From Bacillota bacterium (GTDB lineage Bacteria; Bacillota; Limnochordia; Darwinibacteriales; DTU012): a stretch of DNA of 64,000 nucleotides. The stretch covers positions 11,247 through 75,246 of the forward strand of contig DURM01000019.1 in the NCBI GenBank assembly GCA_012837335.1. Direction: 5' to 3'. Shown in pieces: positions 14,020-64,000 of the stretch (its first letter is position 1; each line of letters begins with the position of its first letter). Below the pieces are notes generated by a model. It did no database searches. It saw only the letters and a list, made by a program, of their open reading frames with translations, and was not told where the DNA came from. The position numbers and the translations under genes are program-made.

Positions 14020-14052
14020 AAAAAAAGCACTCAACTTTACAGTGAGTGCTTT
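14020..14052 (-). terminator. Rho-independent terminator after toxin gene
   Basis: On the minus strand, UAA is followed by AGCACUCA-loop-UGAGUGCUUUUUUU. The stem begins right at the stop codon. Confidence 0.55.
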
Positions 14053-14407: not shown

Positions 14408-14408
14408 A

Positions 14409-14678
14409 TTATTCAGCCTCCGCCAACTGACGTTCATATTGGTCAAGCAGTTGATCATCGGATCCTTCTTCAGCTAAGAGTAGGTTAATGGCTGCCATGC
14501 TTTGATACCCGTCTTTGAGCTGTTCCCGCAGCACAGAGCGTTTCTTGTGCAGAATGTACATCTGGACGGCTTCGCAAATAAACTGGCTGCGATTACCGTT
14601 GCTTTCCTGCACAACCTGATCTACTTCTTCTAATAATTTATTCGGTACAGATATCATTATTCGTTTATTCTGAGCCAA
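14409..14678 (-). CDS. ndoAI: Ribbon-helix-helix antitoxin (EndoAI/MazE-like)
   Basis: 89 aa RHH fold ('[16 protein letters not shown]...RSQFICEAV') directly upstream of the toxin. TTG start at 14678 is preceded by AAGAGGTGA. An ATG 8 codons in is the alternative. Confidence 0.75.
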
Positions 14679-21808: not shown

Positions 21809-22000
21809 AATTAAAACACCACCTCAATTATTCTAATCAGCATCATCGTTTTATCCTTCTACCTTAATAATATAAACTTAAGACTTAAATATGTCAAGTT
21901 TTTCCTCGATATTATTAATCTGGAACAGAGGGAAAAAGCGGACAGGGATAGTAAATAATATGACGAATATATAATCGATGTGAACAACGGAGGAAACTTT

Positions 22001-23854: not shown

Positions 23855-23877
23855 GATTATCGAGGAGGTATTTGTCT

Positions 23878-24639
23878 ATGAAAAAAACTATGTTCATTAT
23901 GCTGATCAGTTTACTGCTGATTTCAGCGACCGTATCAGCCCAAGTAAATCACCGGATTACATTTGGAGCCGATATCCAGATCAATGCGCTCACCTTTAAT
24001 CCTTTTTTTAAGCCATCGGAAGAAGGGAGCAAAAACTCCAAACAATTCAACACCTGGCAGCTGATGCTGTCCGGAAAAATTGAACCGGCAGCAGACTTAC
24101 TGCTTTTGTTTGATCACGGATTCGGCTGGGCTAACCAATTTAACAACACTTTTGAAAACGATGAGTCAATAACCAACAATGTTACTAAAGCTGCGCTGAT
24201 GTATCAGTTCTATAACGATACTAATCTGCAGATTTACGGCGGACTCGGGTATAATTTTGTTCGCTACAACTTCCATAACCTAATCTACCATGACGATGCG
24301 CTGAAAAAGAATGCTAAGCTGGATGGAAGTGGTTTTTTGGCCGCTTCCCAAGTTAATTTCATTGTTGCCGACAATCTGACTATCAAAGCTAACATTGAAG
24401 CTGCACCTTTTTATACCTGGGTGTATGAAGCAACTGAAAGCGGTGACGACATCAAACGAGGCTCTGCTTATTTCTACCGCCTGACCGCTGAGTACGATAT
24501 CAATCATGCATGGTCTGCCAAGATTGGCTACAGCGGCAGCCGGTCCAATACCAGCGAATTTACTTTGAATGACTACACTGTGCCTGAGATTACCTTCACC
24601 CAAGGCGGTCTCCAAGTGGGAGCAACTTATAAATTCTAA
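23878..24639 (+). CDS. Small outer-membrane beta-barrel protein (OmpW/OmpA-barrel-like)
   Basis: Signal peptide 'MKKTMFIMLISLLLISATVSA' (RBS GAGGAGG). Amphipathic beta-strand pattern rich in aromatic residues and Gly. C-terminal '...GATYKF' beta-signal. Confidence 0.5.
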   Translation: MKKTMFIMLISLLLISATVSAQVNHRITFGADIQINALTFNPFFKPSEEGSKNSKQFNTWQLMLSGKIEPAADLLLLFDHGFGWANQFNNTFENDESITNNVTKAALMYQFYNDTNLQIYGGLGYNFVRYNFHNLIYHDDALKKNAKLDGSGFLAASQVNFIVADNLTIKANIEAAPFYTWVYEATESGDDIKRGSAYFYRLTAEYDINHAWSAKIGYSGSRSNTSEFTLNDYTVPEITFTQGGLQVGATYKF

Positions 24640-37546: not shown

Positions 37547-38389
37547 TTACATTCTTTTGAAGCCTTCCCCAAGTACCTCATGAACATCGCTGATAACTAC
37601 AAACGCATTGGGATCAATTTCCTTGACAAGCTCCCGCAGACTCTGGATCTCGGAGCGAGAAACAATCACATACAAAACTTCGCGTTCAGCTCCAGTATAC
37701 ATTCCTTTGCCAAACAGCGCAGTTGCTCCCCGTTCGAGCTTAGTGAGAATCATCTGGCCAACTTCTTCTGTATGATCGGTGATGATCAATGCTGCCTTAG
37801 CATAACTCTGTCCTTCCTGAACTACATCGATTGCTTTCGTGGTGACAAATACGGCTAACAGCGCGTATAAAGCCAGTTCCGGTCCAAAGACAAAAGCGGC
37901 CAGGGCAATCACAAATCCGTCCACAAATAAAAGTGCTCGCCCAACTGATGTAGGGAAAAATCTAGCAATCAACTGGGCTGCCATATCAGTTCCACCGGTG
38001 CTGCCTCCAAAGCGGAAAGTGATCCCCAGTCCCACACCGGTAATCACACCTCCATACACCGCCGATAAAAGAGGATCCGAGGTCAGGGGCACCGCCCACC
38101 GCTGAAACAAGTCAACTAAGAGCGAGAGTGTGACTGTGCCGACAAAGGTCTTAGCACCATAAACCGTTCCCAGAATCCTGATTCCGGCAATGAATAAAGG
38201 GATGTTTAAAGCCAGCATGGTCAGACCTACCGGGAAATTAAACAAATGATACGCTACAGTGGACAACCCGCTGACGCCGCCTGCAGCAATCCGGCTCGGG
38301 ATTAAAAACCAGCTCAGCCCAAACGCGGTAATGACCACACCAAAGAGTACGCCAAAATATTCCCGCAGTTTTTGAACGAATTTACCCAT
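37547..38389 (-). CDS. YitT-family membrane protein (DUF161 + DUF2179)
   Basis: Multi-TM N-terminus ('GGVSGLSTVAYHL') and a C-terminal DUF2179-like domain ('VLYVIVSRSEIQSLRELVKEIDPNAFVVISDV'). Start set at 'MGKFVQKL'. Confidence 0.7.
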   Translation of the reverse strand: MGKFVQKLREYFGVLFGVVITAFGLSWFLIPSRIAAGGVSGLSTVAYHLFNFPVGLTMLALNIPLFIAGIRILGTVYGAKTFVGTVTLSLLVDLFQRWAVPLTSDPLLSAVYGGVITGVGLGITFRFGGSTGGTDMAAQLIARFFPTSVGRALLFVDGFVIALAAFVFGPELALYALLAVFVTTKAIDVVQEGQSYAKAALIITDHTEEVGQMILTKLERGATALFGKGMYTGAEREVLYVIVSRSEIQSLRELVKEIDPNAFVVISDVHEVLGEGFKRM

Positions 38390-39128
38390 TCGCAGGCTTA
38401 CCTCCTGAAAATAACCTTTCAAACAGCACCCATAAAGCAAACTGAGGTAACGCTGCCGCCCGTCCTACACGCGATGGCTGCTGGAGGATGCGATACAGCC
38501 ATTCCAAACCAAACCTCCGCATCCACCGCGGCGCGCGGCGAACGGTTCCGGCTAGAATATCAAAGCTGCCCCCCACTCCCATTGCTACCGGTACCCCTAG
38601 TGAGGCAAGGTGAGCTGCCGCAAACTTTTCCTGTTTAGGCACTCCCAGCGCTACGAAGAGTATGTCCGGCCGGGAAGCTTTTATCTTTTCTAGCACTCCG
38701 TTCAGATCCTCCTGCTTAAAATACCCATGATGAGTGCCGACAATGTTGATACCATTATATTCCTCAGCTATTCTATTGGCAGCCTGCTCTGCTACCCCCG
38801 GTGCTGCTCCCAGCAGAAAGACCCGCCATCCGCGGGTGGAGCTTTCTGCCAGCATGGCCTGCATTAATTCAACGCCGGGTACCCGTTCCGGTAGCGGCTG
38901 TTTGAGAATTCTGCCTGCCCAGATCACGCCGATTCCGTCAGGAACAACCAGATCTGCCCTCTCGATAATCTCGTAAAGCAGTGGATCCCTGTTAGCAGCT
39001 ACGATCATCTCTGAGTTAGCAGTGACTACTAAATGCGGTTTAGGCTGCTTAATCATTGCGGCAATCTCGGCAACCGCCTCATCCATGGTAACTTGATCAA
39101 TTTTTACTCCCAAGATGCTGCTTTTCAT
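38382..39128 (-). CDS. tagA: WecB/TagA/CpsF-family glycosyltransferase (N-acetylmannosaminyltransferase-like)
   Basis: 248 aa ('VVTANSEMIV', 'VPDGIGVIWAGR', 'FLLGAAPGVAEQAA', 'LGVPKQEKF'), typical of TagA/WecG. Confidence 0.75.
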   Translation of the reverse strand: MKSSILGVKIDQVTMDEAVAEIAAMIKQPKPHLVVTANSEMIVAANRDPLLYEIIERADLVVPDGIGVIWAGRILKQPLPERVPGVELMQAMLAESSTRGWRVFLLGAAPGVAEQAANRIAEEYNGINIVGTHHGYFKQEDLNGVLEKIKASRPDILFVALGVPKQEKFAAAHLASLGVPVAMGVGGSFDILAGTVRRAPRWMRRFGLEWLYRILQQPSRVGRAAALPQFALWVLFERLFSGGKPANG

Positions 39129-39140
39129 ACTCGTCCCCCA

Positions 39141-40175
39141 TTATTTATTCCTTACAGCTGCAGCGAGTACATCGCGGTTTTTTTTGCTTAAAGTCCGCAT
39201 CAGCTCCACACGTTCAGCTAACCGCCGGAGATAATCATCACGGTCAGCGCGCACCTGAACTAGTTCGGCTGTCAGATCTTGATCCGGCTGTGGTGAAGAT
39301 ACTTTAATGCCTAATTGAGAGCTCACAGCTGCAACTTTCGGATCATAACAGAGTCCCAGAGGAGCGCTGCCCCCCAGTGCCGCAAAAATCAAGCCATGAA
39401 GCCGCATCGAAACACAGATCTCAGCAGCAGACATTAAACGAAATGCGCTGTTCCAGTCCTCAGCAATTATAAATTCAAGTTCAGGTATCTCCTGCTGCAG
39501 TTTCCGACCAATTTCCGCATCACCCGGACCTAAGGCAGCAAATCGGACATCGAGGTTGAGCCCGCTTTTCCAGCTGTTAATTAAATCCACCCACCGGTAA
39601 AAATCTGCCTGCAAAGTAGGATAAGGCCGCAGGTTAATAGTTAATCCTGGTGCAGTTGCGCGGTGGTCCAGCTGCAGGTTAAAAACCGGATCGGCTGCGG
39701 TAATAATTAGGCTCTCATCCAACCCCCAGTCCTGCAGAAGCTGCGCACTTCCCGCATCCCGAACAGAAATCCCGTGCACACGGCTGAACACTGATTTGAT
39801 CCAGCGCTGATACACTCGGCTGCTGACCGGGCCTATTCCCTGGCCATAGATGACAACTTTGCATCCAAAGCTTAGTGCGAGTTGAATAATGAGCAGATAA
39901 TAGGGAACTGTGCGCCAGCTGGTGCTGTCCTGCAGCAGCGAACCCCCACCGCTGATCAGCAGCCTGCTGCGGCGTACAGCTCTGACAATTGCGGGAAAAT
40001 TAGAGCGGGGCACCGCGCTGACCTTGTGCAGAGCCGCCGTTTCTTCCGGATTGCCGGAAAGCACTGTAATTTCGCTGGGATCAACACCCAATGAGACTAA
40101 ATCAGAGCACAAAGCCGCTAAAACAGCTTCATCACCGCTGTTGCCGCAGCCGTAATACCCGGAAATAAGAATCAT
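39141..40175 (-). CDS. csaB: Polysaccharide pyruvyl transferase CsaB
   Basis: Starts 'MILISGYYGCGNSGDEAVLAAL...'. Polysaccharide-pyruvyl-transferase fold of the CsaB type, which pyruvylates secondary cell-wall polymer so that SLH domains can bind it. Confidence 0.75.
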   Translation of the reverse strand: MILISGYYGCGNSGDEAVLAALCSDLVSLGVDPSEITVLSGNPEETAALHKVSAVPRSNFPAIVRAVRRSRLLISGGGSLLQDSTSWRTVPYYLLIIQLALSFGCKVVIYGQGIGPVSSRVYQRWIKSVFSRVHGISVRDAGSAQLLQDWGLDESLIITAADPVFNLQLDHRATAPGLTINLRPYPTLQADFYRWVDLINSWKSGLNLDVRFAALGPGDAEIGRKLQQEIPELEFIIAEDWNSAFRLMSAAEICVSMRLHGLIFAALGGSAPLGLCYDPKVAAVSSQLGIKVSSPQPDQDLTAELVQVRADRDDYLRRLAERVELMRTLSKKNRDVLAAAVRNK

Positions 40176-41824
40176 CCGCTGCTCACCTTTGTTCCTTTCT
40201 GATAGACCAGCCACAGCACCCATCCTACTGCATATCCGATAACAAGACCGTTAACTGTGCGGATAGCGCTGATAATAATCGGTGTGTGGATGTGGGTAAA
40301 TGTATTGACCAGGGATAACTGCCCAATTACTGCTAAACCCATTAAAATTGGATTGCGGTTCTTAGATGCCAGCAGCAGAACCAGCGCTGGGTGCCCGATA
40401 AATATCTCCTTAAAGCGGGGTCTAACGGTAAAAAACTGCTCCAAGGCTTCCCGCAGACCGATTTCAAACTGAGGTATTGGCAGTTTAAAGTTGGCAGTCC
40501 GCAGAATATATACTGCTCCAACCGCACCAACAACCGCCAGCATCAGCAGATATTTTACCGGCACCGATGTCTGATACAACTCCGATACCACCTGTCTAAA
40601 TTCCCGCCAAGATCGAAACGGCAGTCTATCCCTTAAATATCCGGTGACAAAAACTAAAAACACAGGGGCCAAATGCATCAGCTTCACTCCACGAAACTCG
40701 GTCAGCTTAACCAAGAAGGATGTGCCGCTGAGAATACCGATGATCAAAATCAAGCCAATAAAAGACCACGCTGTTGTTCGTAGATAAAGCTGGATTGTTG
40801 AGCCATCATCATGATTCCGCACCACTGCTAAGGTTGGAAAAACCACTGCTGCTGTCAGCGCCAGCAGCTGCTGACCTAGCACGGGAGCTCTGCTCAGAAT
40901 GAACCAGGAACCGATACCGCTGATCAAAAGCAGGACAACTATCCACTCTGGCTCTAATGTCATCCAGTGCTGTAGAAGCAGCAATGCCCCGGCTATAATG
41001 CCTAACCCGACGATCCACAAGTGCAGATGGGGTGTCTGCCAGGAACTGAATGGAACAGCTTTACCAATCTTGTATCCCTTAGCATGCAGATCCGCAGTCA
41101 AGCTTCTGATCAAGGTAACTGTTTGCTCCCAGCCATCTACTCCGGTTAACGGACGCAGATACAGAACACGGACATTGCGTTCCCGCACCGCTCGGACAAA
41201 TCGGGTCAGAATCCGATCAAACTCCAGATTTTCAAGCTCCTTAGCGCTGATACCATGAACGCGAATCAGCCGATCTGCATCTACAGCCTGTTCAATCCCC
41301 GACACACTGGTAAACTCCACCAAACCTACATTTCCATCATAGTCAGGTGGTAGGTTAGGTGCCGAACCGACATTAAAGATCACTATATGGGGCGTTAAGT
41401 CCGCTAATTTATCTGCTGTGGAAATATCCAAAACCTGGTTCTTCTCAAGCCGCGGGATTATCCTCATGCCTGCGGCAGAAACTGCAGCGATTTCATCAGG
41501 ATTAAATCCCATCGGCTCAGCCAATAGCTGAACCAGATCGCCACCTGATGCGCTTGCAGATGCAGCATGATCATATCCCAAGGCGATCTTTTCACCCAAA
41601 GTCCATTCTGTTAAAGCAATGCTTTCTATTCCCAGACTTCTTAATTCTGACAGCAGGGCAGCCGCCGGAAACTCAGGTGAAATAAACTGACTGAAGTCGC
41701 TGAAACCAGCGACTAATTCTACCGTATTATTCTCCCGTTCCAGATGAAGCCTTTGATAACCGACTGCGACAGCACCGGCCAAAGCTACTGCGATCAGCAA
41801 AATCAATGTACGCTTCATAATCAA
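40172..41824 (-). CDS. Large membrane protein, DUF5693-like (csaB-associated)
   Basis: 550 aa. N-terminal signal anchor, an extracytoplasmic domain of about 250 aa, then at least 8 TM helices. Family name is from memory of csaB-neighbour annotations and was not verified. Confidence 0.4.
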   Translation of the reverse strand: MIMKRTLILLIAVALAGAVAVGYQRLHLERENNTVELVAGFSDFSQFISPEFPAAALLSELRSLGIESIALTEWTLGEKIALGYDHAASASASGGDLVQLLAEPMGFNPDEIAAVSAAGMRIIPRLEKNQVLDISTADKLADLTPHIVIFNVGSAPNLPPDYDGNVGLVEFTSVSGIEQAVDADRLIRVHGISAKELENLEFDRILTRFVRAVRERNVRVLYLRPLTGVDGWEQTVTLIRSLTADLHAKGYKIGKAVPFSSWQTPHLHLWIVGLGIIAGALLLLQHWMTLEPEWIVVLLLISGIGSWFILSRAPVLGQQLLALTAAVVFPTLAVVRNHDDGSTIQLYLRTTAWSFIGLILIIGILSGTSFLVKLTEFRGVKLMHLAPVFLVFVTGYLRDRLPFRSWREFRQVVSELYQTSVPVKYLLMLAVVGAVGAVYILRTANFKLPIPQFEIGLREALEQFFTVRPRFKEIFIGHPALVLLLASKNRNPILMGLAVIGQLSLVNTFTHIHTPIIISAIRTVNGLVIGYAVGWVLWLVYQKGTKVSSG

Positions 41825-42510
41825 GCCCCGCTTCCATAAAGTTCAATCCGATCTTCTTTGATCCTGATTTCATCCAGCTGGATCGGAATCGGCAGATCAC
41901 CGAGATCGATCTGCAGCGTATACGCCTCACTAACTAGTTCTAGCAGCAGCGAGGGAACCCTTGTATCTTCAATCAGAAAATCAACCGGCATAATCACTAT
42001 CTGGGCTGGATCAATAATCTGCAGTTCGGTCAGCAGACTCACACTCCAGCTGATCTGCCATAACTCCACCGTACCATTTAGGGCAGCCTGGTTTTCCCGC
42101 AGATCGATTGTAAACAGCTGGTTGCGATCCAGTCGCTCCCAAAAATACTGGTTCAAACCGGCTTCAGATAAAATCAGCTCCGCGTGGAGCTCTTCTGCTC
42201 CCAAATAAGCAAAATCTCCATTCTGCAGCAACCGCTGGACATCAATGGCCGCATCTCTGCTCGAAAGCTCAAAGGCTGCTATCGGCAGGCCATTTAGATT
42301 CCAGTTTCTACCGTAGATGCTGATAGACGCAAATCTGCCAAAGAGAAGTTCCCATCCGAATCTAGTTTGAATCTTTATTTGAGACTCGCCGCCCAACTCT
42401 GCTTCCAAATACTCAACAACAGTCTTTTCAAACAAACCGGGCAGCACAATCCGCGGCAGCAAAAGTACTGCAGTCAGAATCAGCACCCAAATAATCACCC
42501 TTGGTCGCAC
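41821..42510 (-). CDS. Hypothetical membrane-anchored protein (DUF2993/LmeA-like?)
   Basis: 229 aa with an N-terminal TM ('VIIWVLILTAVLLLP') then a soluble domain. Family assignment is tentative. Confidence 0.3.
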   Translation of the reverse strand: MRPRVIIWVLILTAVLLLPRIVLPGLFEKTVVEYLEAELGGESQIKIQTRFGWELLFGRFASISIYGRNWNLNGLPIAAFELSSRDAAIDVQRLLQNGDFAYLGAEELHAELILSEAGLNQYFWERLDRNQLFTIDLRENQAALNGTVELWQISWSVSLLTELQIIDPAQIVIMPVDFLIEDTRVPSLLLELVSEAYTLQIDLGDLPIPIQLDEIRIKEDRIELYGSGA

Positions 42511-46196: not shown

Positions 46197-47324
46197 TTAT
46201 ACCGATGCTGCATTGTGCCCGGCGATGTAACTAGCATCAAGCAGCGCCCATAGTCCTCCTGTCACTAAAGAGTGGCCGCCAAGCATTATCGGTATCGGCG
46301 CACTGCAGGCCGCCGCCGTGAACTCCCTCAGTCCGGGGTGGGATATCTGGTCAACCATGCCTAAATCAGAATAAAACCGATCACTCTGCGATAAGTCCCA
46401 GTTCCAATGGGCAAACATGATTCTGGAATCAAGCACAGCTCCATGGCTGATTTGGCCGAGGAATCTAAAAAACTGCTCATAACCATAGGAAACCATCATT
46501 TCTCCAAATAGAGACTGTGCCTCTCCTCGCACATCCCTTCCCAGCGCTTTCATACCTCGTTCCTCCGAGTAGAGCCGGATGCGGCAGCGGGTCAGCTCAT
46601 CGAGAAGTTTAAACAAGGAGGAATTAACCCGGCCGTAAACCAGCAGTTCACCGTGAAAATCTCCCATCACTTGTTTTATTTTATCACATCGAGTCAGATC
46701 GATATCCATTTCCGCCACAGCCCGCTTGGTGTGTTCACCCACATGGGGGTGGCATGCTAAAATCATCAGATCACTTGGTGTATCAATATCAAACTGCAGA
46801 CCGAGAGAACGCTGCAGGGGAATAAATCTGAGATCCGCCTGCTGCACCAGAAGCTGCGGCAGCGTATTATCAATTGCAGGCAGATCAACTTCTGCGAGCG
46901 CTGACCCAGGAGATAATCCGACCAGGTCAGCTGAGTAATAGTTGTTAGCAGTTACGACTCGATCGTGCTGTTCCAGCAGTCTGCGGATATTCCTGAGTTC
47001 ATAAGCAGAAATAAGGGGAGCTGCCGCTCCCCCCATGTATAAAACCTTGTTCAACTTTCTCTGTTTTACAACTCTGAGCAGTTCTTTCCCAAAGTGAAAC
47101 TCCTCTGTCACCTGTGGGTGAAACTCAATTTCTACTGGATATCCTGACGCTGCTTCTGCTAAATCTTGATAGGAGGTCATGATTACTATCCGCTCAAAGC
47201 CAGCCGCTTGAGCCTTGCAAATCTGATCAATTACTATTGCTTTTCGCACCCGGCGCATCATTTCTTCTGGTTCGCTGGATACGGATCCACCCTCGAAAAT
47301 AACTAAGGTTACAGAAGAGTCCAT
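46197..47324 (-). CDS. Hypothetical protein; N-terminal half resembles MobA/CofC-like nucleotidyltransferase fold
   Basis: 375 aa with no confident family assignment. '[19 protein letters not shown]' and 'DIDTPSDL' resemble guanylyltransferase (CofC/MobA-like) motifs. The C-terminal 170 aa are unassigned. Confidence 0.3.
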
Positions 47325-54573: not shown

Positions 54574-55224
54574 TCAGCCGCTTTTGGCTAAAAAAAGTCC
54601 GATAGGGATACCACGGCAGCGGGCTATTAAGTCAGCTAGCGAAAAAAATGTTGCTCCGGTAGTAAAGATATCGTCAATAATGAGAAAATGTTTACCTTTG
54701 ACTAGAGTGGGATCACTAAGTGAAAACGCATTCTGCAAGTTTTTAAAGCGCTGCGGTGGCGAGAGTAAACTTTGGGGTTCGGTTGGTTTATGGCGAAAGG
54801 CTTCATAAGTAGGGCGCCGCCAAACGCGGTTGATTCCTTCAGCCAAGGCTTCGGCCTGATTAAAGCCTCTCTTGTGAAGACGATCAATATGCAGTGGAAC
54901 GGGCAGAAAATAATCAATTACTGCCAGTCCAGCTTCTTCTTTGGCGGCCAATCCTAAAACCTCTCCTAAGGCCACCGCTATTTGATACTGGTTTTGATAT
55001 TTGACCTGATATAGAAGCTGCTGCAGATAATCATGATAATAGCAGAGGACATAACCCTCATAGCGACTTAAGTTTAATTTTTGAAAATCAGGATTTATTC
55101 TCTGTACACAGTCACGGCAGATCGGCAGTCCATCTGGCAGAACCCTTGTCCGGCAGAGCGGACAAAGCGGTGGTGTTGGGTAGAGCAATTCAGATAATTC
55201 CCGAAGCCATACTCTCAGACTCAT
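54574..55224 (-). CDS. comFC: ComF-family protein (ComFC-like phosphoribosyltransferase)
   Basis: N-terminal Cys-rich segment and a PRTase motif 'FLIIDDIFTTGAT'. Confidence 0.75.
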   Translation of the reverse strand: MSLRVWLRELSELLYPTPPLCPLCRTRVLPDGLPICRDCVQRINPDFQKLNLSRYEGYVLCYYHDYLQQLLYQVKYQNQYQIAVALGEVLGLAAKEEAGLAVIDYFLPVPLHIDRLHKRGFNQAEALAEGINRVWRRPTYEAFRHKPTEPQSLLSPPQRFKNLQNAFSLSDPTLVKGKHFLIIDDIFTTGATFFSLADLIARCRGIPIGLFLAKSG

Positions 55225-56969
55225 CGGGACTCCACCCCTTTTAATAAACCCTGCTCTGCCGCCTGCCTGTTTAAGTAGGTAATTCGTTTTTGAGCGGTTT
55301 TCATTGCATCAGTAATTCTGCCGCCGATAAACCAGACTTCTCCATCAGGATGCTCTGCCTTCCTGCCGGCTCTGCCTGCCATCTGGATTAAAGAATTGGA
55401 GTCGAAAAGAACATGATCGCTGTAAAGCACCATGACCTGGACATCTGCCAAAGTGATCCCCCGCTCCATAATTGAAGTGGCTGCCATCACCTGGTATTCC
55501 CCAGATGCAAAGTCTGCTATTTTTTGATCCCGCTGGGGATCAGCCGCCCAACTGCCGCAGACCCTGCGGTTCAGGACAGCTGCTAGTACTTTGGTCAGCT
55601 GCTTAACTGCCTGAACCGTCGGAGCAAAAATCAGCCATGGCGACTGATTGCTCTCAATAATGGAGACAACCTGCTCTGGCAGACCCTTATCAGCTAATTG
55701 GTTTAATTCAGGTAATTTTATTTTTAAGAATCGAGGTTCCGGCAGCGGCCATCCATGATAGCGAGCCGGAATTGTAATCACCGCGCTTGTGCGTAAGCTT
55801 CGGGGAGTTGCTGTCATTTCCACCAATTTACCATCAGCAGTCAGTGAACGTTTAATGGCAAAACGCAGCATCTCGCTCCCGTGATAGGGAAAGGCATCCA
55901 CTTCATCTAAAACGACCAGATCAAAACAGCGGTAAAACCGCAGCGCTTGATGGGTTGTAGCAATTGTCAGCTGACCCTGCTGCTGCCAGGGCTGTCCGCC
56001 ATAATGAACTGCGATTTCAGTATCTGGGAACGCTTTCCTTAATCGCTCTGCAAGCTCCCGCACTACATCACGGCGGGGGATTGCAAACATGACCTTACTG
56101 CCGCGGCTGAGCGCGGTTTGAATGGCTGCAAAAGTAACCTCTGTTTTTCCTGCACCGCAGGCTGCCCACACCAAGACTTTTTTCTTGTCGCTGTGGATAA
56201 AGTCCACAAGTTCACTGCTGGCCCGCCGCTGAGCAGGAGTAAGCTCAAAGTCTAAATGCAGTTTAGGTAATTGCTGAAAATCATCTGCGGGCACTAAAGG
56301 ACCAGCACGCTCCGGTTTATCCAGAACCCATAATCTTGTGCAGCCGCGAACTGGTCCCAAAGAATCACAGGTGGTGCAGATCGGACAATCCGGCCGCCCG
56401 CAGAAGGGACAGGGCCGTACTTCTGTAACTGAGGAATTGCAGCGCATACAGCGGGCTTCTCCCCAGGAGGTTTTAGTCACGCCCGGAAAGCACTCAATTA
56501 CTCCCATGCGCAAACCCCAATCTAAAACCCTCCGGATGTCTGCAGGCCACCAACCGCTGGCTCTAAGAGCCTGTTCCAAAAGATTATCCGGAAGCAGGCG
56601 ACCGTCGAGAAGCAGCTTGAGTTCGCTGAGCAGCTCCAATCTCTGCTCCTCATCCAACCGCCACTGCTCGTAGATCGATTCAGGAACTTCAACCGGATAA
56701 CCCGGATAAGCCAAACCTAATCTGCGCCGCACCAACCAAACTACTGCACTCGGCCAGGCAAACTTCTTCCAAACCCAGTTTAAACGCCCGCGCATCACTT
56801 CAATCTGACTGCGCATGAAAAAGACCTCATCAGCCGCAAGAGGTGGGGTAAGAGCATAAACTCTTCCGCGCCCATCATGATCTGGTTTGAACCAGCGCGG
56901 TTCCTCACAAATATGAAATTTTAACTCGGTTTCAGGAGTCAGTCGCACTAATAGTTGCAATTTTGCCAT
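55221..56969 (-). CDS. comFA: ComFA-like DEAD/DEAH-box helicase
   Basis: Zinc-finger cluster ('CMRCNSS...CPFCGRPDCPIC'), Walker A 'AACGAGKTEV', 'LDEVDAF', helicase C motifs. Confidence 0.75.
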   Translation of the reverse strand: MAKLQLLVRLTPETELKFHICEEPRWFKPDHDGRGRVYALTPPLAADEVFFMRSQIEVMRGRLNWVWKKFAWPSAVVWLVRRRLGLAYPGYPVEVPESIYEQWRLDEEQRLELLSELKLLLDGRLLPDNLLEQALRASGWWPADIRRVLDWGLRMGVIECFPGVTKTSWGEARCMRCNSSVTEVRPCPFCGRPDCPICTTCDSLGPVRGCTRLWVLDKPERAGPLVPADDFQQLPKLHLDFELTPAQRRASSELVDFIHSDKKKVLVWAACGAGKTEVTFAAIQTALSRGSKVMFAIPRRDVVRELAERLRKAFPDTEIAVHYGGQPWQQQGQLTIATTHQALRFYRCFDLVVLDEVDAFPYHGSEMLRFAIKRSLTADGKLVEMTATPRSLRTSAVITIPARYHGWPLPEPRFLKIKLPELNQLADKGLPEQVVSIIESNQSPWLIFAPTVQAVKQLTKVLAAVLNRRVCGSWAADPQRDQKIADFASGEYQVMAATSIMERGITLADVQVMVLYSDHVLFDSNSLIQMAGRAGRKAEHPDGEVWFIGGRITDAMKTAQKRITYLNRQAAEQGLLKGVESR

Positions 56970-57037: not shown

Positions 57038-57076
57038 GCAAAAAACAGAAAACGACTCTTACGAGCCGTTTTTCTG
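57038..57076 (-). terminator. Probable terminator after LuxR-type gene
   Basis: Imperfect hairpin CAGAAAACG...CGUUUU(U)CUG followed by UUUUUUGCAGGG on the minus strand. Confidence 0.35.
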
Positions 57077-57077
57077 A

Positions 57078-57374
57078 TTAGTCAAGCTTAACTAACCCAT
57101 GCCGGACAGCCAACAAAGCAATCTGCGTGCGGTCATCCATCTCCAGCTTGTGGTAGATGTTGCTGACATGGTTTTTAACAGTGTGCTTGCTGATGTGCAG
57201 ACACGCAGCAATCTCATTGTTATTGTAACCCCGCGCTACCAGTGACAGAACTTCTTTTTCTCTTGGCGTCAATAAGTCCAGCAATTTTGCTTTGTCATTG
57301 GCTTCCTCCCCGGGAGGCGGACAATTCTGTTTACGATTATTAGCAGACACAACATGACCCCCCGTCTGTTTCAT
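57078..57374 (-). CDS. LuxR/GerE-family HTH transcriptional regulator (stand-alone HTH)
   Basis: 98 aa ('LTPREKEVLSLVARGYNNNEIAACLHISKHTVKNHVSNIYHKL'). Confidence 0.7.
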   Translation of the reverse strand: MKQTGGHVVSANNRKQNCPPPGEEANDKAKLLDLLTPREKEVLSLVARGYNNNEIAACLHISKHTVKNHVSNIYHKLEMDDRTQIALLAVRHGLVKLD

Positions 57375-57409
57375 CTGTTGGTCAGTACATCGTATTCACA
57401 GCTAGAGCG

Positions 57410-57772
57410 TTATGTTCTAGTACTCAGGAGGAGGTCCCCTAATTCTGTGCAAGAATGGGAAACGGTTCCTATCGGCAGTTCTAAGACCCAGCGAGCACCA
57501 GCCACATAGGGACCACACCTGCCGGGGACAAGCTCATGGATCTTCATGACGCGGTTGGATTGATCCAAATACAGAACTTCCACTGCTATCCGCATCCCAA
57601 ACCCATGCACCATACTGCAGGGAATCAGCAGCAGACCTTCTCCCCTGCAAAGCTCAGCAGCACCCAGCAGTCCCTTCAGGCGGAGCAGAAAAGTATCAGC
57701 TATTCGGATCTCTGTTCCTAAACATGTGCCTTTAGTGGCATTGAGAATCTGAATCTTTTTCATTATAATCAC
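57410..57772 (-). CDS. DUF192-family protein (COG1430)
   Basis: 120 aa ('LLLIPCSMVHGFGMRIAVEVLYLD'). Confidence 0.5.
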   Translation of the reverse strand: MIIMKKIQILNATKGTCLGTEIRIADTFLLRLKGLLGAAELCRGEGLLLIPCSMVHGFGMRIAVEVLYLDQSNRVMKIHELVPGRCGPYVAGARWVLELPIGTVSHSCTELGDLLLSTRT

Positions 57773-57781
57773 CCGAAAAAA

Positions 57782-58693
57782 TTAGAAAACTGCAAGAAAC
57801 TGCAGAACAGCCGGTCCCAACAGCACAATAAATAGCGAGGGAAATACCAGTGTTACTAAAGGCAGCAGCATCTTGATCGGTGCTTTCATCGCCTCTTCTT
57901 CAGCTTTCTGCCGCCGCTGTCTTCGGATTTCCTGCGCTTGAATTCTCAGCACTTTACTGATACTCACGCCCAGCTGATCTGCCTGGACAACCGCAGCGGC
58001 AAAATTTTGGAGATACAGGACACCGGTGCGTTCACCTAAATCTCGGAGAGCGTCCCGGCGTGCTTTTCCAATCCGCATTTCAGACAGCATCCGCCGCAGC
58101 TCATCAGCTAACGGACCTTCCTTTTTTTCGACCACCTTGGCAACGGCTGCATCAAATCCCAGACCAGCCTCAACGCTTACTGTAAGAAGATCCAGCAGAT
58201 CTGGCACAGCCAGAGAAACAGCTATCTGTCTTGCCTTAATCTTCTGGCGGAGATACAAGTCTGGAATAACCCAAGCCGAAGCGGTAAACACAAACACGTG
58301 CATAAAAGTAGGAGAGAGCATAACTACAGCCGCCGCTGTTAGGCCGGTAATGGTCAGCTTAAGTACCATGAACTCTTGAGCCTTCAATCCGCCCGGATTA
58401 CCCGCTAAAACCAGCTGCCGGTTGAGCTTTTCCCATCTCCGATCCTGTTTTTTTACTGAAAACAAACTAGCAAGCCTAGTTAAAGTTCTTCTTATCAGCC
58501 CTACTTCGCCCACGGTTTGGTCGACTGCTTTCTGCTCTTCACCTACTATCCCGTACAGCTTTATACGCTCGGCTTCCGCCTCGGCTAGCTGCCGCTGCCG
58601 ATAAGCGGAATAAACAGCTAAACTGATCGAGAGAAAAACTAACCCTGAAATCCATAAAGCCACGTGAATCCTCCTACACCCGAATATTGACAA
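57782..58693 (-). CDS. tadC: Tad/Flp pilus assembly inner-membrane protein TadC (T2SS-F family)
   Basis: 303 aa. N-terminal TM, GspF-like domain, C-terminal TM pair. Confidence 0.7.
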   Translation of the reverse strand: MSIFGCRRIHVALWISGLVFLSISLAVYSAYRQRQLAEAEAERIKLYGIVGEEQKAVDQTVGEVGLIRRTLTRLASLFSVKKQDRRWEKLNRQLVLAGNPGGLKAQEFMVLKLTITGLTAAAVVMLSPTFMHVFVFTASAWVIPDLYLRQKIKARQIAVSLAVPDLLDLLTVSVEAGLGFDAAVAKVVEKKEGPLADELRRMLSEMRIGKARRDALRDLGERTGVLYLQNFAAAVVQADQLGVSISKVLRIQAQEIRRQRRQKAEEEAMKAPIKMLLPLVTLVFPSLFIVLLGPAVLQFLAVF

Positions 58694-59666
58694 TCCTGCG
58701 GATTAAAAAAGCAGCGGCTGCCTGTCCTCCTAAACCAACAATCAGCATTGCCCTGCCCAGCGGTTCCGAGAATAAAGGGCGGATATAATCAGGATTGAGC
58801 AGGTAAATAAAAATGGTAAGTGCAAAGGGCAGAGCGGAAATCACCAGACCGGATATGCGTCCTTGAGCCGTTAGTGTGCTGATTTCTCCTTTGATGCGGA
58901 TCCTTTCCCTAATGGTACCAGCGATCGAATCTAAGATCTCCGAAAGATTACCCCCTACCTGCCTCTGAATCAAGACTGCGGTCACTACCAATTCTAAGTC
59001 ATCACTTACTACACGCTTAACCAAATTTTCCAGCGCAAATTCTGTGTCTGCTCCCAAACTCATTTCCTTGTTGACCAGAGCAAACTCCTCCGCCAGAGGC
59101 GGTTCAGACTCCCGGGCGATCAGCTCAACAGCTTGAAAAAAACTGCAGCCCGCTTTCAAAGAATTGGCAATTGCAGCTAATACCTCTGGCAGCTGCTGCT
59201 CTACCTGTTTGCTCCGCTGACTCTGTCTCCATCTTACATAAACCGAAGGCGCTAATGCCGCCAATACTGCCAGGAGCAGACACTGCTCCAAACTCACGCT
59301 AAATCCCAGCAAAACTAAGGGCGAGAAACCAAGCAGGGCATTCAAAATCAGGAATTCTCCGGCTGACAGCGAAATTCCAGCCCTGACCAGTTCTAAGGCC
59401 AGCTGCCGTGACGGCTTGATATTCAGCTTTTGATTAATCTGTCCCAACAGCCGCTGAACTCTAGTTAACAGCTCGTCTTCATCTGATTCATCTTCTGCGT
59501 ATCCATTTAAGCCGTGCTGAGGCATCAACTCATAAATGCGGCGGTCGAGCAGATGTTTTTGCTGCAATCTTCCAGCAGCAGCAAAGCAGATAAGAACTAC
59601 AGCACAGAACACTAAAGCTGCGCAAAATAAAGGCATCAATATGCTCACCCCGATCATGCTGCTCAT
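58674..59666 (-). CDS. tadB: Tad/Flp pilus assembly inner-membrane protein TadB (T2SS-F family)
   Basis: 330 aa with the same T2SS-F topology, adjacent to cpaF. Confidence 0.7.
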   Translation of the reverse strand: MSSMIGVSILMPLFCAALVFCAVVLICFAAAGRLQQKHLLDRRIYELMPQHGLNGYAEDESDEDELLTRVQRLLGQINQKLNIKPSRQLALELVRAGISLSAGEFLILNALLGFSPLVLLGFSVSLEQCLLLAVLAALAPSVYVRWRQSQRSKQVEQQLPEVLAAIANSLKAGCSFFQAVELIARESEPPLAEEFALVNKEMSLGADTEFALENLVKRVVSDDLELVVTAVLIQRQVGGNLSEILDSIAGTIRERIRIKGEISTLTAQGRISGLVISALPFALTIFIYLLNPDYIRPLFSEPLGRAMLIVGLGGQAAAAFLIRRIVNIRV

Positions 59667-60985
59667 TAAATGAATAAGTTAATCGGCAGCTGAATTCCAT
59701 TATCCGCAATTTTCTCGGCACACCGCGGTCTGATTCCAGTCGGCCGCAGCACTCCCCGCTCAAAAACAAAGATATCCTGCATAGTGATTACCTCACCTTC
59801 AATTCCCTGGACCTCAGTAATCTGAGTAATCTTCCGAGACCCATCTTTTAACCGAGCCTGCTGGATAATCAGATCAATTGCCGATGCAATCTGCTCCCGG
59901 ATTGCCCGCACCGGCAGATCCACACCAGCCATCAGAACCATGGTTTCCAGCCGCGCGAGCATATCCCGAGGACTGTTGGCATGGCCGGTGGTCATGGAAC
60001 CATCATGCCCGGTATTCATTGCCTGAAGCATATCCAGAGCTTCACCGCCCCGAACTTCACCAATGACAATCCGATCCGGGCGCATTCGCAGGGAGTTGCG
60101 CACCAAATCTCGGATTGCCACTGCCCCCCTCCCCTCAATATTAGGAGGACGGCTCTCCAGCGAAACAACATGAGTCTGCCTGAGCTGCAGCTCAGCTGCG
60201 TCTTCGATGGTAATAATCCGTTCTTCCGCCGGAATGAACGAAGACAGCACATTTAGCAGTGTTGTCTTTCCACTTCCGGTTCCCCCGGAAACCACGATAT
60301 TTAATCTAGCCTTGACGCAGGCCTCGATGAACTCAGCCATCTCTAGCGTGAGGGTGCCGAAGTTAATTAGGTCTTCTATTGTTAGGGGATCGGCTGCAAA
60401 CTTCCGGATTGTAATCGTTGGACCGTTGAGCGCTAACGGCGGAATAATCGCGTTGACACGGGAACCATCAGGCAGCCGTGCATCCACCATGGGACTGCTT
60501 TCATCAATTCGTCTTCCCAGCGGTGCAACGATTTTATCGATAATATGCAGCACATGCTCATGGTCACGAAAAGTAATGTCTGTCAGCTCTAATCGTCCGC
60601 TCCGCTCAACAAAAACTTGCTTAGGTCCATTTACCATGACCTCCGAAATATCCGGATTGAGAATCAAGGAATTAATCGGCCCAAAGCCGGTAACCTCGTC
60701 AATAATATCCTGGAGCAGCTGTAGGTTCTCAGCGCGGGACAAGTTCGCCTGCTCTTCATGGATAACCCGCTGAACAACCTGCTCAACCTTGGTTTTTAAT
60801 TCTTGGTTTTTATCATTCTGGTCGGCGCTTTTCAGCAGTTTACTGTCAATTTCACTTACCAGCTGCTCATGAATGCGGCCTTTGAGGACAATTAAAGGAT
60901 CGCGTGGGTTGGTACTCCCGGAACTTGCCGGCTGATTCTGGCCAGCTTGATCTTTATGCCGTTCTAGTCGTGCCAATAATGACAT
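59666..60985 (-). CDS. cpaF: Tad/Flp pilus assembly ATPase CpaF/TadA
   Basis: Walker A '[11 protein letters not shown]', '[11 protein letters not shown]', '[38 protein letters not shown]', diagnostic of CpaF. Confidence 0.9.
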
Positions 60986-60989
60986 ATGA

Positions 60990-62180
60990 TCATCCTTTTC
61001 TTGTGAACAGCGTGCCGGCAAACGGCAGCATTTTTTTTGGTTCATAAATACCTAATATATCCTTACTCATCTGTTCTAAAGCGCGTCCCAGTTTTGACCG
61101 GGGATTTAAGTCCACAATCGGAATGCCCTGCACACAGGCTTGATAAGCAAGTCTCGGATCATAAGGCAGCGCCCGCCAAACCGGATAATTGAGATGGCTG
61201 CTGAACTGTTCCAGCCGAATTCCCTCAGCACCAACCTTGTTAGCAGTTACTTTAACTTTCGCTGCCAAATTCAGTTTCGCTAAAACATCTAAACAGCGGC
61301 GGATGTTTTTTAGATTAGCTAAGTCAGGTGTTCCCGCAAGCAGGATATGGTCTGCTGTTTCAAGAGCTTGCAGAGTCGTTTCTTGGAAAAACTGGGGTGT
61401 GTCGATCACAATAAAATCAGCAAGGGATTTTAACTCTTTTAAAATCTGAGCGATATGTTCAGCGGTAATTAACTCTCCTTCTTCAGGAACCTCCGGGGCT
61501 GCGAGAATTCTAAGACCTGGTCCAGCTTCAAGCAGATAATCTACAGCCGCAGGGCAGCCATCAGCGAACCAGTCAGAAATAGAGTGTTGGACGGCAAGAT
61601 CCAGCATCAGCGGCACATCGCCAAACTGCAGATCAAAATCGACAAGGATCACTTCGTGATTCTGCTTGGCTAAGGCAGCCGCAAGATTGACGGCAATCGT
61701 AGTCTTCCCTACTCCCCCTTTGGCGCTGAAAACTGCGATTGTCTCCGCACTGCGCGTTGGTTTTTCCACTATCTCATGGCGACTGCGCCGGGCGCATTCC
61801 AGCTGCCAAACGCGGTTGATAGTATTAATCAGCTCATCGCCGCTGAAGGGCTTAGTTAGATAATCTCTAGCGCCTGCTGCCATCGCTCGGCGCAGATACT
61901 CCTGCTCTTCCTGCACACTGATTACAATGGTCAAGCATTCAGGAGCTGCTTGATAAATCTGCTCGGCTGCGCTGATACCATCCAATCCGGGCATGTTGAT
62001 GTCCATTAAGATGCAGTCTGGCTTGAGATCTCGCGCCACTTCCACCGCTTCGCTGCCATCAGCTGCTTCACCGATAACCGCGATATTATCTGCAAAAGCC
62101 AGCAGCTTTCTAATATTGCTCCTAGTTTCAGCTGTATCATCAACAATCACTACTCTGATCTTATCTGGTTCCATCACCAC
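60990..62180 (-). CDS. cpaE: CpaE-like pilus-assembly ATPase with N-terminal response-regulator receiver domain
   Basis: REC domain with acidic pocket and phospho-acceptor Asp ('VVIVDDT...ILMDINMPGLDG'), then a ParA/MinD deviant Walker A 'SAKGGVGKTT'. Confidence 0.8.
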   Translation of the reverse strand: MVMEPDKIRVVIVDDTAETRSNIRKLLAFADNIAVIGEAADGSEAVEVARDLKPDCILMDINMPGLDGISAAEQIYQAAPECLTIVISVQEEQEYLRRAMAAGARDYLTKPFSGDELINTINRVWQLECARRSRHEIVEKPTRSAETIAVFSAKGGVGKTTIAVNLAAALAKQNHEVILVDFDLQFGDVPLMLDLAVQHSISDWFADGCPAAVDYLLEAGPGLRILAAPEVPEEGELITAEHIAQILKELKSLADFIVIDTPQFFQETTLQALETADHILLAGTPDLANLKNIRRCLDVLAKLNLAAKVKVTANKVGAEGIRLEQFSSHLNYPVWRALPYDPRLAYQACVQGIPIVDLNPRSKLGRALEQMSKDILGIYEPKKMLPFAGTLFTRKG

Positions 62181-64000
62181 TCACTCCCTCGCTTACAATC
62201 CATGGGGTGACGAACACCGTCAGTTCAGTCTGCCTCTCCTGAAACTCTGAGCTGCGAAACAAAGCTCCGATTATCGGCAGATCACCCAGAATCGGAATCT
62301 TTTTGATCTGGTTGTTCTCTTCATGCTGAATCAAACCGCCAATCACTGCAGTGGAACCGTGCTTTAAATTCACCACCGTTTCTGTCCGCCGTGTTCGTAA
62401 AGGAGGCATTGATGTTTGAAGCCGCGCGCTGGTCTGCCAATCAAGACTGCTGACTTCGGGCTTAATCTGAATCCGAATCTGTTCATCAGCAATAAATGGC
62501 AGAATCTCAAGTTTTACCCCATAGACAATCCATTCAATCGTCTGCTGGTCACCCACTTGTACTAGAACCGGAATCTCGCCTCCTGCTAAAAACTCAGCCG
62601 GCTCTCCTGACAGGGTAAGCAGACTGGGCGCAGCCAACAGTTTAGCCTTCCCCTCCTCTTCTAGGGCTGATAGTCTAGCTCCTAATAAATGTGAACGGTT
62701 CATCTGCCAGCTGCCGATATGCGCAACTTCTTCGAAGGAAATTACATTGGCAAACAGCTGTCCTTCAACTAAACTGCCCCATTCCACACCAAACTGTTCT
62801 CCTGCGCTGCGATCAAGCTCAACAACATGTACCTGCAGCAGCACCTGCTCCGGCTCAAGAATAGTCAGGAGATCAATAACATCACCATAAAGTTCAGCCA
62901 CCTGAAGAACCCGGCTGTGTTCCCGCGAGTTTTGAACCGTTCCTTCCAGGACAAGTTTTTCACCAACAGCCGTTACCTTTACATCCGGAAGATCCAAATG
63001 CCGGACTAATTCCTCAGCCGAACTGATCTGACCCGGCTGGGGATACTGCAGAAAACTAATTACCGGCTGATAGAATACTTCTGCCAGGCGCTCCGCCCGC
63101 TCTTTAGCCTTTTGATCAGGAACAAGTCCTTCCAGCACAATGGTGCCATGATAATACCGCACACTAATACCCGGCTCCCGAAGGGCGGAAGCAATGTCAG
63201 CAACCAAATCTGCTTCAAACACATGCTCATTCCCACTGTCCAGAATAATCGGCGGGTGCTGCACCCGCACCAAATCGATCACCTGATCACTGAATGCCTG
63301 CCCGATCGCCAGAGCTCTGGTTTTTGCAAACTCATCTTCAGCTGTACCTTCTAAGAAAAGAGTGCTCCCAATCCAATGGGGGTGAATATCAGTGCCGGCA
63401 AGTAGAGTGTTCAGCAGCTCCCGATCCGGCTCATCCACCTCTCCAGCGGGAGTGGGAGTAGGATTCTCTTCGGCCATTTCCACAGTAATCAAGTCAATCA
63501 CCGGCAGATCGGATACTGCTGCCAGCTTCACTGCCCGCTCTTTTTCCCACAAGTTTACAGCTCTGCCTTCGAGAACTAGATGTCCATAGACGATCTCCAA
63601 AGTAATTTCGGGGCTGCCGATCAACCTATTCATTTGGCTTAAGAGCGTCTCTTCGTCTGATTCCAGATCATCGACATCCAGTGGTTCAACCTCTGGAGAC
63701 CGCTCCTGCACCCTGATTAAGTCTACCACCGGCAGACCATAAGCTTCTGCGATAGCACAGGCTCGCCGCCGGTGGTACTCATCAGCAGCACTTCCTTCCA
63801 AGAAAATTGTCTCTCCCACAGCATAAACATGAACGTTATCATCGAGTAATGCTTGAATTTGCTCTGCAAAATCCGCAGGTCCCGGCTCAGTCACCTCCGC
63901 TGCCGTGGATTCCGGTACAGGGTCGGCGTTTCCTACCTTAAGCAGATCAAGAACCTGCAGACCAAAAGCGTCAGCTGTGCGGTAAGCCAGTGCCCGTACG
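62161..64000 (-). CDS. cpaC: Secretin (CpaC/RcpA-like) with at least 5 tandem N-terminal pilus-formation repeats; 5' end beyond window
   Basis: C-terminal secretin domain ('KIPILGDLPIIGALFRSSEF...TVFVTPWIV'). Five repeats of roughly 75-90 aa of the form '...LEG(T/S)...A...VIDL(I/L)xV(Q/E)'. The reading frame stays open upstream of the ORF-track GTG at 63894 to the window edge (translated 'VRALAYRTADAFGLQVLDLLKV...'), so the gene is 5'-truncated. Confidence 0.8.
   Translation of the reverse strand, partial: VRALAYRTADAFGLQVLDLLKVGNADPVPESTAAEVTEPGPADFAEQIQALLDDNVHVYAVGETIFLEGSAADEYHRRRACAIAEAYGLPVVDLIRVQERSPEVEPLDVDDLESDEETLLSQMNRLIGSPEITLEIVYGHLVLEGRAVNLWEKERAVKLAAVSDLPVIDLITVEMAEENPTPTPAGEVDEPDRELLNTLLAGTDIHPHWIGSTLFLEGTAEDEFAKTRALAIGQAFSDQVIDLVRVQHPPIILDSGNEHVFEADLVADIASALREPGISVRYYHGTIVLEGLVPDQKAKERAERLAEVFYQPVISFLQYPQPGQISSAEELVRHLDLPDVKVTAVGEKLVLEGTVQNSREHSRVLQVAELYGDVIDLLTILEPEQVLLQVHVVELDRSAGEQFGVEWGSLVEGQLFANVISFEEVAHIGSWQMNRSHLLGARLSALEEEGKAKLLAAPSLLTLSGEPAEFLAGGEIPVLVQVGDQQTIEWIVYGVKLEILPFIADEQIRIQIKPEVSSLDWQTSARLQTSMPPLRTRRTETVVNLKHGSTAVIGGLIQHEENNQIKKIPILGDLPIIGALFRSSEFQERQTELTVFVTPWIVSEGVSGDGTR

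Follow-up and report, generated by a model that had tools for sequence, protein, structure and literature searches.

The window analysed here, a 64,000-nt stretch of contig DURM01000019.1, ends in 6.9 kb that very probably belong to a chromosomal Tad/Flp (type IVc) pilus operon in a diderm Firmicute, 'Candidatus Wallacebacter cryptica'; the operon has 12 genes, and the window covers its 3' two-thirds. Seven co-oriented open reading frames (ORFs) lie on the minus strand between positions 57078 and 64000, each scoring above the Pfam gathering threshold. Together with same-species contigs that continue past the window edge (approximately 70 kb of readable sequence in total), they give the operon order flp-tadV-tadE-tadG-like-cpaB-cpaC-(REC)cpaE-cpaF-tadB-tadC-DUF192-luxR, in which the intergenic spacings from tadV to the DUF192 gene range from -56 to +18 nt and a 98-nt gap lies 3' of flp. 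What sets it apart from Tad systems of known kind is the long array of periplasmic N-domains in the secretin, the absence from the locus of pilotin or bridge genes, and the canonical receiver domain of CpaE.

A first-pass annotation of the window had named the seven genes as secretin, receiver (REC)-CpaE fusion, CpaF, TadB, TadC, DUF192 and LuxR-type helix-turn-helix (HTH), and all of them match the named families above the Pfam cut-offs. The CpaC/RcpA-type Tad secretin (62161-64000; Pfam Secretin 152.6 bits and BON 80.3 bits for the part in the window) has its 5' end beyond the edge: there is no stop or plausible start for its frame in the window, and it is open to base 63999. In same-species contigs it is 801 codons long, of which the window holds residues 190-801 only, so that the earlier description of a full secretin was in error in this minor respect. 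The pore domain (residues 634-791, at 62194-62667) scores 151.8 bits against Pfam Secretin and aligns to residues 207-371 of the Tad secretin RcpA (8odn); the doubt raised beforehand, that the C-terminus might fail secretin models, is thereby settled, and 8odn (3.3e-37) and 8jvb, both Tad secretins, are the closest solved relatives by sequence. The protein is predicted to form a multimeric outer-membrane pore.

Downstream of the secretin gene is a CpaE/TadZ-type ParA/MinD ATPase with an N-terminal receiver domain (60990-62174; Pfam Response_reg 100.9, ParA 63.5 and CbiA 57.6 bits, with AAA_31 also above its cut-off), carrying the deviant Walker A motif KGGVGKT; the public gene call begins two codons downstream of the start of this 396-aa ORF. 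The receiver-like domain of TadZ has been described as atypical and lacking the phospho-acceptor aspartate. Here all five canonical receiver residues (D14, D15, D60, S88 and K110) are retained. The CpaF/TadA motor ATPase (59666-61045; Pfam T2SSE 228 bits) carries the Walker A sequence GGTGSGKT (residue 254) as well as a His box; among NCBIfam models it matches TIGR03819 (TadA family) best, narrowly missing the cut-off of 373.15 with 348.8 bits. Two inner-membrane platform proteins follow, of TadB type (58674-59666; T2SSF 61.9 bits) and TadC type (57782-58663; T2SSF 69.2 bits, three hydrophobic segments), and then a 117-aa DUF192 protein (57410-57763; 51.8 bits) with neither a signal peptide nor a transmembrane helix predicted. 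A sequence search of the PDB with the DUF192 protein returned nothing useful; the gene is kept in four related species (loci L007-L010) as a conserved accessory member of the Tad locus. The last gene encodes a LuxR/GerE-type HTH protein that lacks a receiver domain (57078-57350; Pfam GerE 73 bits); its length of 90 aa is that of the public gene call, the longest ORF extending to 57374. Directly 3' of luxR on the same strand is a terminator-like hairpin (57049-57072; 12595-12618 in same-species locus L002) with a 10-bp stem followed by a T-run, a consensus match only, which is likely to mark the operon's 3' end and to part the Tad genes from comFA. Promoter-like matches in the Tad locus show no excess (8 against 11 expected by shuffling).

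The remaining genes were read from same-species contigs. The exact TadB protein is present on 22 public contigs, and over 12-15 kb, in gap-free alignments, the six contigs that were compared share 99.68-99.97% identity with the window (subtracting a locus position from 69667 gives the window position). Directly upstream of the secretin gene these contigs carry genes for CpaB/RcpC, a TadG-like protein (Pfam Tad), TadE, an A24 peptidase and a Flp pilin, as had been anticipated for flp, the prepilin peptidase and cpaB/rcpC; 5' of flp are a divergent HD-domain gene and then a DegS/DegU two-component pair. The Flp pilin (L002 2091-2273; Pfam Flp_Fap 35.7 bits, cut-off 32.2) has its G/XXXXEY processing site at residue 21 as G/QGMVEY, and TadE has the corresponding site G/QALVE. 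TadV is a short prepilin peptidase of 173 aa, consisting of Peptidase_A24 only (63.1 bits) with no methyltransferase domain, and both catalytic aspartates are present (D18 in DGRYRRIP and D76 in GGGDVK). CpaB/RcpC matches the equivalog TIGR03177 at 202.2 bits (cut-off 71), with SAF and RcpC domains, an N-terminal transmembrane helix and a hairpin-like C-terminus (...DIKIEIFRGTEREVILVDK). An apparent absence of tadV from contig L001 was rejected, since the contig has a scaffold gap of Ns at that place. The suggestion of a conductive 'e-pilin', prompted by proposals of direct interspecies electron transfer for the clade, is unsupported, the mature Flp having two aromatic residues in 44.

The secretin departs most from its solved relatives between its two ends. 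Its alignment to 8odn and 8jvb is confined to the T2SS-T3SS_pil_N domain (pil_N; residues 26-86) and the pore (632-792), and the two are separated by about 545 residues, compared with about 105 in RcpA. A repeat hidden Markov model (HMM) places seven repeats of approximately 60 residues in this interval, at residues 97-156, 157-215, 232-290, 307-366, 382-439, 453-512 and 515-573, with acidic, proline-rich linkers of 13-16 residues between repeats 2/3, 3/4, 4/5 and 5/6. The window contains repeats 3-7 and the last part of repeat 2 (together residues 190-573, at 62848-63999), and the parts beyond it, namely the signal peptide, pil_N, repeat 1 and most of repeat 2, lie no more than 566 bp past the edge; the full protein scores 48.3 bits for T2SS-T3SS_pil_N and 95.7 bits for BON, and begins with a hydrophobic N-terminal signal. 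A lipoprotein secretin was considered and rejected, as the cysteine at residue 23 follows G-A-G, a non-canonical lipobox, and is not kept in the family consensus. An AlphaFold 2 (AF2) model of the monomer, from an alignment of 16 sequences (mean predicted local distance difference test score, pLDDT, 68; predicted template modelling score, pTM, 0.33), consists of an N-terminal beta-sandwich followed by seven alpha-beta-beta-alpha-beta modules with pLDDT of 75-85, joined by linkers below 50. When this model was compared with solved structures using Foldseek, secretins ranked first (1.9e-14 to 9wfd), and the next matches were OsmY, DolP and BonA together with the ring-building proteins YscD, CdsD and PrgH/K of type III secretion systems.

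Secretin residues 190-573 were used as the query in an exhaustive phmmer scan of 1.84 billion representatives (E <= 1e-3), and only 114 proteins matched. Domains in these were counted with local HMMs built from this secretin family, which are biased towards the same family; by this measure 87 of the 114 carry a pore domain and 85 carry pil_N. Among the pore-bearing proteins, one repeat was found in 1, two in 21, three in 7, four in 36, five in 5, six in 6, seven in 7, eight in 1, nine in 1 and eleven in 2, and a word-index profile search added almost no further secretins. The repeat type is thus almost confined to pil_N-type secretins, and arrays of six or more repeats are rare. Relatives of the secretin have 6-11 repeats, and the named secretins with at least six are all from Firmicutes/Bacillota or Limnochordia metagenome-assembled genomes (MAGs); one four-repeat protein is from a betaproteobacterial MAG. 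Because the repeat HMM matches Tad secretins of ordinary length (approximately 450-560 aa) twice, the modules seem to have arisen by amplification of the periplasmic N-domain that is native to Tad secretins. One relative, a protein of 1049 aa labelled '[Limnochordia bacterium]' (P0018), has 11 BON-like repeats and an OmpA-type (PF00691) peptidoglycan-binding domain, and some members of the family may accordingly have a direct attachment to the wall.

A working scheme for the Tad apparatus can be drawn from its homology to the machines of Caulobacter and Pseudomonas. The Flp prepilin would be cut by TadV at G/QGMVEY and polymerised by CpaF docked on TadB/TadC, with CpaE positioning or gating the motor. 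The canonical receiver of CpaE suggests that phosphorylation exerts some control; the phosphate donor is perhaps the adjacent DegS-type kinase (HisKA_3; Pfam DegS 124.6 bits in a relative), a candidate partner. The fibre would pass from a ring of CpaB anchored in the inner membrane out through the secretin. A C-terminal beta-hairpin of RcpC docks on the N-domain of RcpA to make a periplasmic conduit (PMC12307814), and in Caulobacter the secretin has CpaD as its partner and is linked to CpaB by CpaI, with many Tad systems being without CpaI (PMC13170226). In the present secretin the chain of seven modules would set the N-terminal docking domain, to which the CpaB hairpin presumably binds, at a long distance from the pore, and the array could serve as a built-in spacer or conduit that spans the periplasm. 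We prefer this role because the docking domain is seven modules away from the pore and because the locus has no CpaI, CpaD or TadD gene. It is the most economical reading of the array, if a tentative one that falls somewhat short of probable.

Several observations bear on this preference. No gene for a pilotin or secretin-associated lipoprotein (TadD, RcpB or CpaD) or for CpaI was found in the locus, where the ORFs from flp to luxR are all accounted for by the 12 genes, and no TPR protein or lipoprotein is among these; a pilotin/lipoprotein gene in the locus is not a universal Tad trait. Two points weigh against the spacer or conduit: other parts of the genome may carry a gene for a pilotin, CpaD or CpaI, and the linkers of 13-16 residues, predicted to be disordered, suit a flexible tether at least as well as they suit rigid stacked rings. 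The linkers do not settle whether the array is a conduit or, as another explanation has it, a membrane or wall anchor or a built-in chaperone that replaces the pilotin, keeping the monomers soluble and targeting them to the outer membrane without forming a conduit. This second explanation, to which we give less credence and consider rather unlikely, would account for the Foldseek matches to OsmY, DolP and BonA, which are periplasmic BON proteins (the title of the DolP entry reports phospholipid binding), for the lack of both TadD and CpaD genes in the locus, for the OmpA-type domain on an 11-repeat relative and for the long disordered linkers. It fits less well with the homology of the repeats to the one or two N-domains of ordinary Tad secretins of approximately 500 aa, with the rings that N-domains form in the solved secretins to which the repeats align structurally, or with the pil_N docking domain lying at the end of the array remote from the pore, where it would be expected if it bridged to CpaB. 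The spacer or conduit could involve a stacking of module rings. Thermus and Deinococcus PilQ, the secretin of type IVa pili, has a long stack of periplasmic N-domain rings. It is likewise a secretin of diderm Terrabacteria with many periplasmic modules and is the analogy behind the spacer idea, a lead that comes with weak hits (8co1 among them); it belongs to a different secretin subfamily (type IVa pilus rather than Tad) and has N-domains of other types.

A secretin points to an outer membrane, and the first-pass annotation had pointed in this connection to two further signal-peptide-bearing beta-barrel proteins ending in Phe, both of which are borne out. The smaller (23872-24639, plus strand; 255 aa, C-terminus ...QVGATYKF) scores 29.8 bits against Pfam OMP_b-brl (cut-off 28.7). 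The larger (17262-18584, minus strand; 440 aa, C-terminus ...KAGIAVKF) has no Pfam match, and a PDB sequence search with it gave nothing useful; its AF2 model (pLDDT 77, pTM 0.63) shows a signal helix followed by approximately 24 strands, predicting a large outer-membrane barrel, and in a Foldseek search of the PDB the top 50 matches are all Gram-negative outer-membrane barrels, with 283 matches at E <= 1e-3. Relatives of the 440-aa protein carry Porin_4 and are named '[Limnochordia bacterium]'. Both barrels share a C-terminal pattern, polar-x-G-x-x-aromatic/hydrophobic-x-Phe, that resembles the beta-signal recognised by the beta-barrel assembly machinery (BAM). Immediately upstream of the smaller barrel gene is a secreted subtilase with a CarboxypepD_reg domain (21980-23854, plus strand), the barrel gene beginning 18 bp 3' of it, and the two may work together at the cell surface.

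Because three proteins of outer-membrane class are present and the lineage is diderm, an outer membrane in Ca. Wallacebacter cryptica is strongly suggested by these sequences and models, in agreement with the first-pass proposal; the secretin is expected rather than surprising, the lineage being a known diderm one. According to a passage in PMC11456536 that cites Taib 2020, Limnochordia have outer-membrane markers and outer membranes visible by electron microscopy, and the same paper reports an outer membrane seen by transmission electron microscopy in cultured Limnochordia. Weighing on the other side, none of the outer-membrane biogenesis genes (BamA, Lpt, Lpx, OmpM, flgH/I) is found within the approximately 70 kb readable. 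In one relative (L008), the genes upstream of degS include none for the envelope, and encode an S-adenosylmethionine synthetase, two unknown proteins and a SnoaL-like protein. Elsewhere in the window, a CsaB pyruvyl transferase gene (39141-40223) is clustered with genes for a WecG-type glycosyltransferase, a DUF5693 protein and an LmeA-like protein (38382-42510, minus strand), adjoining prfB/secA; this is compatible with a pyruvylated wall polymer anchoring SLH-domain proteins (OmpM, S-layer) and is not diderm-specific.

The organism itself was identified through its proteins. Window proteins have exact NCBI matches named 'Candidatus Wallacebacter cryptica', whereas the nearest GTDB representatives, labelled 'Bacillota bacterium' or 'uncultured Clostridia', are only 56-65% identical. 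The clade is MBA03, which SILVA assigns to Limnochordia and GTDB-Tk to Limnochordia/DTU010/DTU012 (PMC12663870). Counting against such a placement, the authors of the 2025 clade description argue for Clostridia (PMC12663870), and NCBI taxonomy has Ca. Wallacebacter cryptica under Clostridia; Ca. Darwinibacteriales. Their paper describes an uncultured organism, is concerned with metabolism and flagella, and does not contain the words 'outer membrane', 'diderm', 'pilus' or 'pili'. Placement in the diderm Limnochordia agrees better than placement in Clostridia with the secretin, CpaB and the outer-membrane-type barrels. Were the organism instead a monoderm, Clostridium-like Firmicute in which the secretin is a relic or has some other role, the filing of the clade in Clostridia and the lack of an outer-membrane biogenesis gene in the window would be readily explained. 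We nonetheless consider this very unlikely: five species have an intact secretin, whose variable codons within the species are exclusively synonymous (5 synonymous, 0 nonsynonymous), the same window encodes two more outer-membrane-type barrels with C-terminal Phe motifs, and GTDB and SILVA place the clade in Limnochordia, whose members have outer-membrane markers and visible outer membranes. The G+C content of the window as a whole is 47.4%, and that of four loci (L002, L004, L012, L013) is 45.9-48.3%, at odds with the 59.09% published for the type MAG of Ca. Wallacebacter cryptica (59.19% for Darwinibacter; PMC12663870); either the published value is erroneous or the name spans more than one genome type.

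The operon lies in a chromosomal setting that is typical of Firmicutes. Its flanks have the order degS-degU ... comFA-comFC-yvyF-flgM-flgN-flgK-flgL-fliW-csrA ... fliS-hpf-secA-prfB, and the Firmicutes synteny claimed at first pass is evident; the flanks match the B. subtilis order degSU ... comF-flgM ... fliS-hpf-secA-prfB. The first gene of the conserved downstream block, which is flank and outside the machine, encodes the ComFA helicase (55221-56969, minus strand; Pfam DEAD/ResIII/Helicase_C, and synteny). In four other species (L007-L010; locus G+C 46-56%) the order degS-degU, HD, tad operon, comFA-comFC-yvyF-flgM-flgN-flgK is identical, with flp passing the tblastn threshold only in L010 and the short pilin gene going undetected in the other three. 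Identity across species is 55-86% for the Tad proteins, compared with 51-86% for the neighbouring genes. The gene luxR, which stands between the pilus operon and the comF-flgM block, is the most conserved of the locus at 87-93%, compared with 55-86% for the machinery, which hints that its regulatory role may be more constrained than the parts of the pilus. Within luxR, at L006 12322-12538 (window 57129-57345), one strain or assembly (ERR6188801) has 36 substitutions in 217 bp (~17%), mostly synonymous, with only 8 differing sites in the 12 kb around this tract. The pattern suggests either a short tract recombined from a related lineage or, in a gene as conserved as this, an assembler that jumped from one co-occurring relative to another.

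The locus might instead be contamination, as had been raised at the outset, or a chimeric assembly or a recent island from a Gram-negative donor, and two facts could be taken in favour of this, namely that Tad loci are often horizontally transferred (PMC6668835) and that the G+C content of the locus (49.5%) is about 2 points above the window mean. We judge it extremely unlikely, the least credible of the explanations considered here, because the locus occupies the same place in five species and its divergence is on a par with that of its neighbours. In addition, both junctions are identical in six independent assemblies (99.7-99.97% identity), the G+C content of the locus is near that of the window, the GC skew is uniform, and the DUF192 accessory gene also occurs in Tad operons from monoderm Firmicutes. 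This rules out contamination, chimerism and a recent transfer, whereas an ancient acquisition by the order's ancestor could have taken place; the operon appears to be anciently inherited.

The same neighbourhood could suggest that the machine serves mainly for DNA uptake (competence) rather than adhesion, as comFA-comFC lie directly downstream of the operon in all five species, and the title of PMC8513845 ties Tad pili to DNA uptake in Liberibacter. However, this adjacency may merely reflect the position of the operon, and a 108-bp gap with the terminator-like hairpin separates luxR from comFA, while neither ComEA nor ComEC is encoded in the locus. We take comFA-comFC-yvyF-flgM to be ancestral Firmicutes synteny, as in B. 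subtilis, which also counts against a competence role, and we regard such a role as improbable.

In its core the system resembles the Tad machines of Pseudomonas aeruginosa (RcpA-RcpC-TadZABCD) and Caulobacter crescentus (CpaA-L), with which it shares Flp, the A24 peptidase, a minor pilin of TadE type, the alignment protein CpaB/RcpC, a pil_N secretin, CpaE/TadZ, CpaF, and TadB with TadC. It differs from them in the seven secretin modules and correspondingly longer distance from pil_N to pore, in having no TadD pilotin, RcpB, CpaD or CpaI gene in the locus, in the canonical receiver of CpaE, and in the DUF192 and LuxR-type HTH genes that are conserved members of the operon. Monoderm systems of the type IV filament superfamily, Tad included, have no secretin (PMC6668835), and DUF192 is found at the 3' end of monoderm Firmicutes Tad operons (e.g. 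Bulleidia extructa, Helcococcus; PMC12786226); the operon described here shares the position of DUF192 and differs in having a secretin and CpaB/RcpC in its middle. Two Tad systems with secretins in diderm Firmicutes (Halanaerobiales and Negativicutes) were listed by Denise, Abby and Rocha 2019, who described the secretins of diderm Firmicutes as having no distinctive domain architecture (PMC6668835); Antunes et al. 2016 reported likewise for type IV pili. The present locus is similarly a Tad system with a secretin in an outer-membrane-bearing Firmicute, and is distinguished from those by the seven-module array and by its occurrence in a third diderm group, Limnochordia sensu GTDB. The small two-domain proteins OsmY, DolP and BonA have the same alpha-beta-beta-alpha-beta module fold, to which the BON match above the Pfam cut-off corresponds; they have no pore, whereas the seven modules of the present protein form one chain with a secretin and are homologous to native Tad N-domains. 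In our search of the literature, no paper was found that links Limnochordia or MBA03 to Tad pili or that discusses an outer membrane in MBA03.

Two other features of the window may be noted. A PemK-type toxin (14051-14458, minus strand) has an RHH-type partner in a small ORF upstream, forming a toxin-antitoxin pair that is flanked by genes for an HTH_3 regulator and a class-I glutamine amidotransferase. No Pfam family matches (E <= 1e-3) the 375-aa ORF that lies between hpf and secA (46197-47324, minus strand).

These findings leave current views standing, in that the diderm nature of Limnochordia was already established, as were Tad systems with secretins among diderm Firmicutes. The locus adds a concrete molecular argument for an outer membrane in MBA03/'Darwinibacteriales', and in this way bears on the dispute between Clostridia and Limnochordia. 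The group is among the most abundant taxa of biogas reactors, and in some industrial digesters it accounts for as much as 38% of the bacterial community. The stable chromosomal landmark degSU-tad-comFA-flgM could, by comparison of diderms with monoderms, show what becomes of such an operon after loss of the outer membrane. Tad secretins with 2 to 11 copies of the module offer a natural series in which to examine adaptation to the width of the periplasm or the type of wall, and Tad loci that lack a pilotin. As a speculation, and a doubtful one, the 6-11-module secretins of Bacillota may each be a self-sufficient channel across the periplasm, whether as rings or as a calibrated tether from the pore to the CpaB ring, that replaces CpaI, CpaD and TadD and has its copy number tuned to the width of the envelope; MBA03 would then be diderm bacteria with retractile adhesion pili, which could possibly mediate their proposed physical association with methanogens.

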